DNA of 64,000 nt from Isurus oxyrinchus (lineage: Eukaryota), in contig JANJGN010000007.1 of NCBI GenBank assembly GCA_026770705.1, positions 56,606,001-56,670,000 on the forward strand. Reading direction: 5' to 3'. The position numbers were made by a program, and so were the translations under genes. Position 1 is the stretch's first letter. Every line of letters begins with the position of its first letter. Positions 1-4,569 of the stretch are shown here, piece after piece. The notes beneath the pieces were generated by a model. The model ran no database searches. It worked only from the letters and a program-made list of their open reading frames with translations, and had not been told where the DNA came from.

Positions 1-369
1 AATAACATAATCTGATCAACTTCCTATTTCCTAAGGTCTAAATTAGGTTAATACTGCATATATGTGAATGTGCAGAGTGTGGTAAATGAGGTTGGTGAGC
101 TGCAGACGCAGATAGGCACAAGGAATTATGATGTGATGACAGTAATTGAAGCTGGCTCAAAAAAGGACAGATTTGGGTACTAAACATTCCTGATTACAAG
201 GAGTTTAGGAAAGGTAGAGAAAGAAAGGAACATAGGTAGCTGTATTGATTAAGGCAAACATTACAATACTGGAGAGAGAGGACATCCTAGAAGGGTCAAG
301 AACACAACCAATTTGGGTAGAGCTAAGAAACTATAGAGGTAACAATTACATTGCATGTTGTATTCTGTA

Positions 370-809
370 ACTCTTTTGAGTACAAACACATTTCCATCTG
401 TTCCTTTTCAGATGAAGTTACATTGTTTCATAGTTTGCCATTGTGAGATTTGAACTCTTGATCTTGGGGTTACAAACTCAGTACCATAACCACTTGGCTA
501 TTTATGCCAAGCCATGAAGTTACATTGTTTCATAGTTTGCCATTGTGAGATTTGAACTCTTGATACTCTTTTGAGCACAAACCCGTTTCCATCTGTTTCA
601 GATGAAGTTACATTGTTTCATAGTTTGCCATTGTGAGATTTGAACTCTCGATCTTGGGGTTACAAACCCAGTACCATAACCACTTGGCTATTTAGGCCAA
701 GCATCAGGAAGCTGCAACTCTTTCGAGTACAAACCCATTTCCATCTGTTCCTATTCAGATGAAGTTACATTGTTTCATAGTTTGCCATGGTGAGATTTGA
801 ACTCTTGAT
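370..809 (-). repeat. Tandem tRNA-derived (Thr-TGT-like) SINE units, left cluster; full heads at 436-508 and 626-698, half heads ending at 564 and 809
   Basis: Reverse complement GGCCTAAATAGCCAAGTGGTTATGGTACTGGGTTTGTAACCCCAAGATCAAGAGTTCAAATCTCACAATGGCA has an A box (TAGCCAAGTGG), D stem, TGT loop and B box (GAGTTCAAATC). Acceptor and T stems are broken. A constant tail ends in AAAGAGT. Confidence 0.8.
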
Positions 810-1882
810 AATCTTTTAAAAGAAAACCAAATCAACAAAATCGGGATAAATCAGGCACAGCCCCTAATTCAGGTCAGCTGTAAAACCAAGAACAAAGTTT
901 AAAGGAAACTGACAAACTTTAAATCAAAATGTGATTAAAGGGGTCAACAAAACACCCCAGTCCCCGCGGTGCCCACCGAGCATGGAAGGCCTCGAGAGTG
1001 CCAGCAGACACCGCGTGCTCCCTCTCCAGGGACATCCAGCAGCGAATGTAGCCACGGAAGAGGGACAAACAATCGGGCGGGACTCCCCCATCGATCGCCC
1101 GCTGCCTGGACCTTTTAATGGCCAACTTGGCCAGGCCCAGGAGCAGGTTCACGAGGAGGTCCTCCTCCTTCCCGACCCCCTTCCGCACCGGGTGCCCATA
1201 GATCAGGAGCGTGGGGCTGAAGTGCAAACAAAACATCAATAAAAGGTTTTTCAATAACTAAAAAGGGAGTGCGGCCTACAACACCCTATGTATACATGGT
1301 CCACGGACTCCACAAGACCGCAAAAAGGGCACGTGTCCTGAGAGTCTGTGAACCTATGCATCCTCTTATTATAGGGGACTGCTGCATGCAACACCCTCCA
1401 ACCCAGGTCCCCGATAGAAAGGGGGAGGACACCTCCGTAGAGGGCCTCCCATCGGGGGCCTCCGCCGCCGGACGGCAACAAGGCATGCCAGGGCGTGTCC
1501 GGGCGGCGGACAAGGGCGAGAAAATGGAAGGTGTGCAGCAGCAGTCCGTACAAAAAGCCTCTCTTTGCTGTGCTAAAAGGCACGGAGGGCATGTCCCCGA
1601 GGCGGCTCATATTGCGGGGCCCCAGCACCCTAGGGAGGGTTCGGGGCTTGGGGCCAATGTGGAATTCCGTCCGAACAGGGGAACGTTCAGACGGAAGACC
1701 ACCGCGCACCTGGGCCACCTCAAGACCCAAAATAACGTCGGGTCCGAGCACAACCATTCTCAGGTCTTGGATGGCATCGGCTGCGACCTGGACACTCACA
1801 GACACGCGTCGCGCCAACTCCTGCGGGAGCATCCAGCCCAGTCCTCCGCCACCCAGCACGTCCCCGATCCTGGTCACAAAAA
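810..1882 (-). mobile_element. 5'-truncated Tx1/L1-clade non-LTR retrotransposon (ORF2 C-terminus and 3' UTR)
   Basis: ORFs 1251..1931(-) and 919..1254(-) give GDLGWRVLHAAVPYN, the zinc knuckle CPFCGLVESVDHVYIGC, LLVNLLLGLAKLAI and FHARWAPRG, typical of Tx1 ORF2 ends. Stop at 919. GC-rich with CpGs retained, so young. Confidence 0.85.
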
Positions 1883-2257
1883 TTACAAACCCATTTCCAT
1901 CTGTTTCAGATGAAGTTACATTGTTTCCCATTGTGAGATTTGAACTCTTGATCTTGGGGTTACAAACCCAGTACCATAACCACTTGGCTATTTAGGCCAA
2001 GCCATGAAGTTACATTGTTTCATAGTTTGCCATTGTGAGATTTGAACTCTTGATCTTGGGGTTACAAACCCAGTACCATAACCACTTGGCTATTTAGGCC
2101 AAGTATCAGGAAGCTGCAACTCTTTCGAGTACAAACCCATTTCCATCTGTTCCTATTCAGATGAAGTTACATTGTTTCATAGTTTGCCATGGTGAGATTT
2201 GAACTCTTGATCTTGGGGTTACAAACCCAGTACCATAACCACTTGGCTATTTAGGCC
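1883..2257 (-). repeat. Tandem tRNA-derived SINE units, right cluster (heads ~1928-1998, 2028-2100, 2185-2257)
   Basis: Near-identical to the units at 370-809. Confidence 0.8.
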
Positions 2258-2446
2258 ATAGGCTAACAATTAGTGGGAAAGATATAGAGGAACAAATTTG
2301 TAAAGAAATGACTGAGAGGTTCAAAAACTACAGGGCAGTTATTATAGGGCACTTTAATTATCCTAAGATAGACTTGGATAGTAATAGTGTAAAGGGGAGA
2401 GAGGGGAAAGAGTTTCTAGAATGTGTTTAGGAGAACTTTCTTCAGT

Positions 2447-3479
2447 CAAAAACAAAACTCGCCACCATGGACATCCACAACTTTCAGTTTGTGGATGTCT
2501 GCTGCATGACGGCTCACGCTGTACAGGACATGCAAAGGATGCTTGACTTCTTCAACACCTCAGATAAGAGGCTTGGCCTGCCCTTAACACTCACCAAAAT
2601 GAAGGTCCGTCGCTAACTTTCCCTGGGCCAGTTGAGCATCCCCCACACCATCCACATAGATGGGGTGACTCTGGAATATTTGCAGTACTACCCTTATCTC
2701 AGTAGCCACCTCTCCCAAGGGACTACTGTCTATGTGGAAGTCCAACACCAAGTCAACTGTGCCAGCGCTGCCTTCTTCAAGCTGTATCACTGTGTCTTTG
2801 ACAACAGGGACCTTTGCAAGTCAACAAAAGTTTGTAAGGCCATTGTGTTGACCACCCTCCTCTACTGCAGCAAAACATGGACTGCCTACCGGCACCACAT
2901 TAAGATCCTTGAGAGTCTCCATCAGCAGTGCTTGCATCGAATCCTGGGGATCAAATTGGCAGACCACTAGACTAATGTGAGCATCCTCCATGAAGCTGCG
3001 TCTACTGGCATTGAAGCCTTTCTCCTGTGGAACCAACTCTGATGGATGGGCCATTGTATCCAGATGCCCAAAAACCACCTCCCTCAGCAGGTTCTCTTCT
3101 CACAGCTCTCCATTGGCCACTACTCAATGGGTGGCCAAAGAAAAAGGTATAAGACTACGCCCAAGGTCACCCTTAAACATGGAGGCATTAATACCACTGA
3201 CTGGGAAGAGAATGTGCCGATCACTCGGCATGGCGCCACCTGGTCCATCAAGGCACAAGCCACTTTGAGGCTCAGCAACTTGAAAGAGAGGCAGAATGGC
3301 GGCGGCAGAGGAAGGAGAAAGAAGCCACCCCGAGGCTGCGATTTTCACTCCCCTGCGCAACAACGTGCCCCCACCGCAGAAGAAAAAATGGATCCAGAAT
3401 TGGGCTCCTCAGTTATCTGAAGTCTCACCAATCCTGACGAACGTCATCCTCAAAACCGAGGGACAACTGGCGACTACAA
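2447..3479 (+). mobile_element. RTE-clade LINE 3' fragment inserted in the CR1
   Basis: YYPYLSS, VNCASAAFFKL, TLLYCSKTWTAY..HQQCLHRILGI, WMGHCIQMPKNHLPQQV..GGQRKRYK; RTE-like 3' end gtcatcctcaaaaccgagggacaac. Confidence 0.8.
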
Positions 3480-4569
3480 TGTGCAAGGAGGCATTGCTGG
3501 ATCTGGCTCTGGGGAATAAGATGGGTCAAGTGGATTCAGTGCGAGTGGGGGAATATTTAAAGGACAGTGATCATAGCATCATCAGTTTTAGGTCAGGTAT
3601 AGAAAAGGCTAGGAGCAATCCAGCATACAAATAATTAATCGAGGGAGATCCAATTTCAATGGGGTGAGAAAGATCTAGCCCAGGAAAATTGGAATCGATA
3701 TTAGTAAAACTGTAATGGAACAATGGTTTGTCTTTCAAGAGGAGATAGTTTAAGTACAGTCAAAGTACATTCCGTAAAGGGGAAAAGGTAGGGTAACTAA
3801 AGCCAGAGCCTCCTGGATGGCAAAAGACATAGAGGGCAATAAGAAGGCAAAAAAAGGTGCAAATGATAAATGTCAGATGAAAGATATTACAACTGAGTAC
3901 AAAACTGAATATAGAAGGTTCAGAGATAAAGTGAAAAAACAAATAAGTGAAGCAAAAAGAGAGTATGAGAACTTGCAGATAGCATTAAAAATAATCCAAA
4001 AGTCTTCTATAGGTATATGAACAGTAAAAGTTTGATTAAAAAAACGATGATTAGGGGCCGAAAATGGGTTTTACACATGGAGGCAGAGGGCATGGCTGAG
4101 GTACAAAATGAATACTTTGAATATGCCTTTACTAAAGAAGAAGATATTGTCCAAGAAACAATGAAAGAGAAGGTAGTTGAGACACTAGATGGGCTAAAAT
4201 GAATGAGCAGAAGGTATTAGATGGGCTGTACTTAAAGCACCAGGACTGGATGAGATGCATCCAAGGAAACTGAGGCAAATATCAGAAGCACTGGCCATAA
4301 TCTTCCAAACCTTCTTAGAGTAGTGCCTGTGAACTGGAGAATTGCAAATGTTACACCCTTGTTCAAAGAAGGGTATAAGGGTGGCCCTAAAACTACAGGC
4401 TAGTCAGTTTAACCTTGGCGGTGGGAAAACATTTAGAAATGATAATTCGGACAAAATTAACAGTCACTTGGACAAATGTGGATTAATTAAAGAAAAACAG
4501 CTCCAATTTGTCAAGTGAAAATGATGTTTAACTAGCTTGATTGAATTTTTGATAAGGTATTTTTTCAAA

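Follow-up and report, generated by a model that had tools for sequence, protein, structure and literature searches.

A tRNA-like array around a truncated LINE

We analysed a 64,000-nt stretch of Isurus oxyrinchus DNA (contig JANJGN010000007.1, positions 56,606,001 to 56,670,000), referred to here as the window. On its minus strand, between positions 370 and 2258, seven copies of a tRNA-like unit surround a 5'-truncated LINE. The arrangement described in the original prediction was recovered: five units bear a 5' head, starting at 2258, 2104, 2002, 702 and 512, and two are half heads that start at the same base of the unit (809 and 564), 5 nt before the T-loop/B box. The half head at 564/565 is joined to a SINE 3' end and that at 809/810 to a Tx1 3' end, again as had been read from the sequence.

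The array lies within an old LINE. The left flank of the founder SINE array (1..369, plus strand) is a CR1-like ORF2 fragment and the right flank (2259..2443, plus strand) continues this ORF2; the two are contiguous in a related, uninterrupted copy at locus L254, with a 5-nt gap between the hits, and the flanking LINE has a sub-threshold profile match to Exo_endo_phos_2 (E = 0.02). From this match and its general likeness to the family, we take the LINE to be presumably a CR1. Just right of the array it is interrupted by a different LINE-like 3' fragment (2444-3480), which is presumably RTE/L2-like.

All features of the array itself are on the minus strand. A full SINE unit, d (370..512), has the founder 3' end at a TAC site, with an overlap of only 2-3 nt and no long TSD. 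Next to it lie half unit c (514..564), which is the 3'-truncated downstream half of head b and starts at the target base, an 88-nt SINE self-insertion with a G-variant tail at that base (565..652), and the 5' half of head b, with the A box and the anticodon TGT arm (653..702). A 14-nt spacer foreign to the flanks (703..716) may represent read-through or the TSD of another locus. Half unit a (717..809) is the downstream half of the head hit by the LINE, here called Tx1-A, with the target site at 809. The 5'-truncated Tx1-A (810..1877) consists of the ORF2 C-terminus, with a zf-RVT domain and a frameshift near 1252-1262, and the 3' UTR. Joined to its 5' end is SINE d' (1878..2002), which has a full head and a truncated tail ending in a T5 run; it differs from unit d and is likely a captured SINE transcript. 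Unit b' (2004..2104), a head with a truncated tail, duplicates b/c without the 88-nt insert, and full SINE unit a (2119..2258) forms the 5' end of the array.

The two arrays that flank Tx1-A stem from a local duplication; over their first 284 aligned nt they differ by 3 substitutions. The breakpoints at 564 and 809 nevertheless did not arise by copying one from the other: the array upstream of Tx1-A does not have the 565-652 unit, which occurs in the right-hand copy alone. From the comparison of the two arrays we infer a history in which a three-unit SINE array would have entered the old LINE at a TAC site, followed by Tx1-A, whose insertion into head a would have brought along a foreign SINE cap with a T5 end. 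The array would then have been duplicated, either through joining to a downstream head or by unequal crossover, and the 88-nt unit at 564/565 would have come from a G-variant SINE that inserted into the right-hand copy alone, unless the left copy once had this unit and lost it.

The duplicated arrays raise the question of whether the whole pattern could stem from local duplication or faulty assembly, the more so as long duplications and tandem arrays occur elsewhere too. The joints at 564 and 809, however, connect different elements, the founder flank is covered by Logan contigs of two organisms (these contigs break inside the repeat), and thousands of the same joints lie on all large contigs. 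The genome-wide counts refute this explanation, and we assign it virtually no probability.

The SINE and the LINE

The SINE unit is 138 nt long and derived from tRNA-Thr(TGT). Rfam matched tRNA to four heads in the window, the best with 30 bits (E = 0.003, 626-697) and three below the gathering threshold, and ARAGORN found no tRNA gene in the window. One SINE head and a genuine tRNA-Thr(TGT) gene of the same genome were 69% identical. With a tRNA-derived head that carries A and B boxes, dispersed copies with TSDs and a 3' hairpin in common with Tx1-B (described below; about 12 nt only), the repeat has the features of a SINE2 element, and 20,393 exact SINE tails were counted genome-wide. Many dispersed identical tRNA-Thr(TGT)-like matches were also seen on two small contigs (C38 and C42).

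The LINE fragment at 810-1877 shares 98% identity with the 3' end of a 7.3-kb element, represented by a full-length copy at locus L043. This copy and that at L035 are natural copies with both ORF1 and ORF2 open. The L043 ORFs encode 714 aa and 1,303 aa, with Pfam matches to CCHC in ORF1 and to an APE endonuclease, RT and zf-RVT in ORF2, so that the element has the two ORFs, the CCHC ORF1 and the ORF2 with APE, RT and C-terminal zinc domain that are expected of the Tx1 clade. Its ORF2 is 49% identical to that of Xenopus Tx1L (YTX2_XENLA) over 1,300 aa (99% coverage); the other top matches are unnamed turtle, sturgeon and shark proteins, the best with 68% identity being a Heterodontus protein. 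Judged by its nearest ORF2 match, Tx1-A is a Tx1-clade non-LTR retrotransposon. The window fragment, which contains an indel, is 36% identical to Tx1L ORF2 and retains zf-RVT. A search of the full-length L043 element with Rfam found no ribozyme. The 5' UTR of Tx1-A contains a variable minisatellite and occurs in at least two types (L043, oriented positions 1850-2260; L037 and L038). At C2:61.83-61.89 Mb (L157-L165), nine full-length Tx1-A 5' ends lie in tandem with a period of about 7.4 kb.

Tx1-A inserts at a single base of the SINE head

A search of the whole 5-Gb genome returned 2,583 exact Tx1-A 3' ends and, with a slightly different pattern, 1,980 exact joints between the Tx1-A end and the target; the reversed patterns gave none in either case. 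In samples of the 3' joints, inspected as had been suggested for a predicted specificity of Tx1-A for the SINE head, most ends fell at a single base. On contig 1, 26 of the first 30 Tx1-A ends are followed by the target 11-mer with at most one mismatch, and the other four by sequence starting ATC. The target ATCRAGAGTT in the SINE head was found at 83 of the first 100 exact Tx1-A 3' ends, counted by eye as exact-end places that are also in the exact-joint list, and at all 30 of the best-matching Tx1-A 3' ends the adjoining sequence opens with the 11-mer of the target, exact or nearly so. Both proportions (26/30 and 83/100) lie above the 20% that Kojima's rule sets for a sequence-specific Tx1 element. 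The exact target 8-mer is present in 132 of 232 intact heads but at 63 of 76 joints formed by Tx1-A and at 95 of 104 formed by a SINE end, in copies that are partly interdependent. Because loci cluster in arrays and some were picked for their likeness, p-values overstate independence.

The break falls in the variable loop, and the real tRNA-Thr genes of the genome, compared as proposed, differ from the SINE head at the target site and have other letters there. Among 60 3' joints examined, we found no Tx1-A end in a tRNA gene and no insertion in U2, 5S or tRNA-spacer DNA, the kinds of site used by Keno, Mutsu and Dewa.

Off-target copies delimit the element. At L075 and L079, Tx1-A is bounded by TSDs of 11 and 13 bp that start ATC, which fixes both the true end of Tx1-A and the position of the cut. 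At L251, an outer 14-bp TAC TSD surrounds the SINE and an inner 12-bp TSD surrounds a full-length Tx1-A, and this nesting gives the order of events: the SINE came first and Tx1-A entered it later. The same nested order was found at L240 in a Harbinger target. Identity is 93.3% among the halves behind Tx1-A, 92.9% among intact SINEs and 96.4% for the Tx1-A tail (26 copies); the halves are as diverse as intact SINEs and more diverse than the tail, indicating that they existed before Tx1-A arrived. Together, the nested TSDs, the diverse downstream halves and the off-target TSDs of 11-13 bp show that these are real insertions and do not go back to one local duplication.

They also bear on the possibility that the half SINE is the true 3' end of Tx1-A and that a single old insertion has been recopied with no site specificity at all. 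Most truncated Tx1-A copies do lack an upstream half head at the 5' joint, and some read-through copies exist. Nevertheless, the diversity of the halves and the nesting in L251 contradict recopying, Tx1-A ends are also found at unique ATC sites and at the TSDs of further Tx1-A insertions, and most truncated copies have SINE sequence upstream (see below). This explanation is largely refuted and in our estimate highly improbable. A limited form of inheritance does occur. At L246 and L254, full-length Tx1-A carries SINE or head sequence 5' but is followed 3' by non-SINE DNA, and at L247 and L248 the target 12-mer stands as read-through ahead of unique DNA; some joints have therefore been inherited through RNA. 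The first pair of loci suggests that full-length Tx1-A can take the SINE head along, and the second that RNA read-through priming also contributes to the head-site joints.

The B box core is 5 nt downstream of the target base, in a repeat that is abundant and presumably transcribed by Pol III. Tethering to a Pol III factor at the B box, as for TRE5-A, could fix this position independently of the DNA sequence. Against this, the off-target sites, which have ATC in common, belong to no Pol III gene, the broken B box at the Tx1-A TSD does not prevent joints there, and the 60 joints include none in a tRNA gene. Tethered elements also insert near their targets and not at a fixed base inside them, according to the part of the literature consulted (PMC3706591). 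We hold tethering to be very unlikely, scarcely ahead of an artefact and slightly behind recopying. We infer that the Tx1-A endonuclease itself reads the head site.

Two insertion routes of the SINE and an older sister of Tx1-A

Genome-wide counts bore out the proposed self-insertion of the SINE, with its head entered at the base used by Tx1-A: there are 6,639 exact joints of a SINE end with the head target and none for the reversed-pattern control. Of the first 30 SINE tails, 9 are followed by the head target, 17 by TAC and 4 by other sequence. We rejected the idea that the SINE itself ends in TAC, since TAC forms the first bases of the TSD. In SINE arrays read by eye, 8 of 21 have TSDs of 13-15 bp, five of which start TAC. 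A one-base variant of the SINE tail tracks the route, with 69 of 84 G tails at the head target and 149 of 182 A tails at TA[CT]. Since the tail variant is tied to target class and SINE dimers have been copied whole (L144 to L143), the 6,639 joints are not all independent insertions.

One part of the original prediction, that the SINE seeds new landing pads through the same LINE, was not supported in the form given. Most SINE founders instead adjoin TAC and have a 13-15 bp TSD, the signature of a second subfamily, Tx1-B. Its ends lie at TAC in 28 of 30 cases, and its favourite target is an old repeat with a DDE_Tnp_4 piece upstream (L127), on which basis we call the repeat Harbinger-like. This site accounts for most of the 30, which again exceeds Kojima's 20%. 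Of 20 Harbinger-like sites sampled, 18 are empty and 2 hold a SINE, and none of 20 examined contains a full-length Tx1-B 5' end. The terminal 3' hairpin folds in both the SINE and Tx1-B. At L266 (C1:28.19-28.20 Mb), more than 20 truncated Tx1-B units of ~430 bp lie in tandem with the Harbinger TSD between them, forming a LINE-derived satellite.

The array growth by self-targeting that had been proposed does happen, but it is not the sole route. Units also stack at a TAC site with the TSD between them (L240), several RNAs can be fused, as seen in the U6 and tRNA-Thr pieces on SINE 5' ends described below, and arrays are locally duplicated.

Near the 3' end, leaving aside the last ~25 nt, the majority sequences of Tx1-A and Tx1-B disagree at just 2 of 270 columns. 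Within-group identity is 95.8% for Tx1-A and 91.2% for Tx1-B, indicating that Tx1-B is the older. The first 10 nt of full-length Tx1-A match the Harbinger target sequence downstream of TACA and are likely a relic of the ancestral site. An ORF2 search seeded with Tx1-B gave mostly Tx1-A (one Tx1-B among 20 fetched), and 11 further stretches yielded a single Tx1-B endonuclease, a decayed one (L258, 88% aa identity).

This near identity, outside the last ~25 nt, would suit a scheme in which the two subfamilies share one endonuclease while the RNA 3' end, and the pairing of its read-through with the nicked strand, determine the target; a SINE or LINE would then have its target class from its master locus. 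So would the conservation at off-target sites of only the bases downstream of the joint (ATC or TAC), the read-through 12-mers ahead of unique DNA at L247, L248 and also L025, and the link between SINE tail variant and target class. On the other hand, off-target Tx1-A copies have proper 11-13 bp TSDs beginning from the exact end, as from a staggered endonuclease cut, and a match of 3-4 nt alone would favour off-target sites, yet 26 of 30 ends are on target. The sole Tx1-B endonuclease also has 27 changes, three of them in the presumed specificity hairpin, which could be decay. Targeting by RNA alone appears unlikely, if a good deal less so than recopying or tethering.

SINE sequence at the 5' joints

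SINE sequence was found within 250 nt upstream of 50 of the 59 truncated Tx1-A copies. Usually this is a whole SINE together with a stretch foreign to the locus. Both of the foreign stretches that were traced occur at exactly one other place in the genome, directly behind a SINE, and end at a T4 run; one trace led from C3 to C1 and the other from C7 to C1. By their sequence, the traced caps appear to be Pol III read-through SINE transcripts from distant loci that were fused to the LINE fragment. Short TSDs flank 42 of 50 truncated Tx1-B copies vs 2 of 59 truncated Tx1-A copies.

At full-length Tx1-A 5' ends (n = 30), 15 follow a SINE end, 11 a half head and 4 a Tx1-A end. The canonical joint, in which a 5' half head and the TSD precede full-length Tx1-A, is present at 11 of the 30, nine of them in one tandem array.

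Two other accounts of the 5' joints were discarded. TTT is enriched at these joints (18 of 59 for Tx1-A, 5% in the control), but 13 of 50 Tx1-B joints have it as well, and the T-run enrichment is not specific to Tx1-A. A long TSD as the general cause of SINE-preceded joints was rejected because most caps differ from the downstream flank. Flanks match end to end at few loci only (761 nt at L018, 629 nt at L043), the others being tandem repeats of one insertion. The duplications at L018 and L043 extend from precisely the target base to the 5' joint of Tx1-A; the one at L018 has internal T4 runs and so was not a single Pol III transcript.

Chimeric SINE 5' ends were also observed. At L155:1361-1500, a 3'-truncated U6 (Rfam, 82.7 bits) is fused to a SINE head, behind which comes full-length Tx1-A, and at L187 a 3'-truncated tRNA-Thr(TGT) is fused to a SINE 5' end. 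Such pieces show that RNAs were joined in series.

Discussion

The observations that any model has to accommodate are the two target classes with their TSDs, the hairpin of the SINE and Tx1-B, and the fusions of SINE transcripts to truncated Tx1-A. We consider it probable that they reflect a three-part system, in which Tx1-A inserts at the SINE-head base, the SINE inserts itself there and Tx1-B scatters the SINE to TAC sites. Young Tx1-A inserts at the one fixed base with a 12-bp duplication. SINE self-insertion at that base would likely proceed via Tx1-A enzymes, and the older sister Tx1-B would likely carry the SINE to TAC sites, creating new targets for Tx1-A. At the head site, the Tx1-A endonuclease would make the nick, with assistance from RNA whose read-through extends into the target. 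If copying ends prematurely, the RT may jump to a Pol III transcript of the SINE, or that RNA may have been ligated to the template, and the captured SINE head would then anneal to the upstream half head and complete the 5' joint. Tx1-A may have arisen from Tx1-B by a switch of target, from the Harbinger-like transposon to its own passenger SINE. It is a much more tentative proposition that this switch came about mainly through a change of the RNA 3' end, and that Tx1-A now needs the SINE as landing pad, as 5' leader of its full-length transcripts and as an RNA patch by which most truncated insertions are completed in trans.

In that case the SINE would help its LINE beyond only parasitising it, and the picture of SINEs as pure parasites would be revised. 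A target multiplied by the system to which it belongs would provide a self-renewing supply of safe landing sites. It is an open problem how site-specific retrotransposons change target and complete the 5' joint, one that RNA-based gene insertion tools face as well. The Isurus genome offers two almost identical subfamilies with different single-base targets, open ORFs (L035 and L043) and thousands of joints, and with so similar a pair the contributions of the endonuclease and of the RNA 3' end should be separable by simple swaps.

Similar elements have been described, and we compare them here as far as the consulted portions of the sources extend. Keno, Mutsu and Dewa, which target U2, 5S and the tRNA-Leu spacer, respectively, are likewise Tx1-type elements at a fixed site of a multicopy small-RNA sequence (PMC3706591, PMC5340908). 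They hit host genes or spacers, whereas the target of Tx1-A is a parasite-derived copy and the real tRNA-Thr genes are without the site. U6/L1 and Alu/L1 chimeras resemble the truncated Tx1-A copies in having a sense small RNA 5' of a truncated LINE, attributed to RNA ligation or template switching; these are occasional in mammals, while SINE-preceded copies form the majority of truncated Tx1-A (50/59) and the attached RNA matches the target (PMC11838501). The RNAs of melanogaster-type R1 and R2 carry upstream target sequence whose annealing completes the 5' joint (PMC2718515), as proposed here, but this sequence acts in cis from an rRNA co-transcript, whereas annealing at Tx1-A would be partly in trans, with SINE transcripts of other loci. 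SINE-derived satellites and tandem SINEs also form head-to-tail arrays with half units. These are put down mainly to unequal recombination, and the text seen of those reports does not invoke a site-specific LINE (PMC10702118, PMC11481361).

Tx1L of Xenopus has the same APE endonuclease, RT and zinc domain and is site-specific within another interspersed repeat, in its case Tx1D, and its endonuclease nicks this target almost exclusively in vitro (PMC1950540). In Tx1-A, the hairpin that this work links to specificity is three residues shorter and unlike.

The closest parallel is with the crocodilian elements Tx1-Mar, SINEU-1/2/3 and Tx1-9_AMi (Kojima 2015, PMC4494074). As in Tx1-Mar/SINEU, a Tx1-clade LINE and a partner SINE have a common target inside another repeat, insertions stand in tandem around the TSD, and small-RNA heads are added 5' by template switching; Tx1-9_AMi targets Harbinger elements, as Tx1-B does (PMC4494074). 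The Tx1-Mar/SINEU target is a DNA transposon, with a partial preference of 13-90% (PMC4494074), while that of Tx1-A is one base in the tRNA head of the partner SINE itself and the sister subfamily keeps the old target. In place of the Mariner target and snRNA-derived SINE head of Tx1-Mar/SINEU, we find a tRNA-SINE head or a Harbinger-like repeat as the target. Within the literature searched, outside of which most subscription papers lie, we found no report of a LINE specific for the head of its partner SINE. Overall, the system works like Tx1-Mar/SINEU and Tx1L/Tx1D, yet it is not Keno, Mutsu, Dewa or Tx1-Mar; it is of a kind already known from Tx1-Mar/SINEU, and what is new is that the target is the head of the partner SINE.
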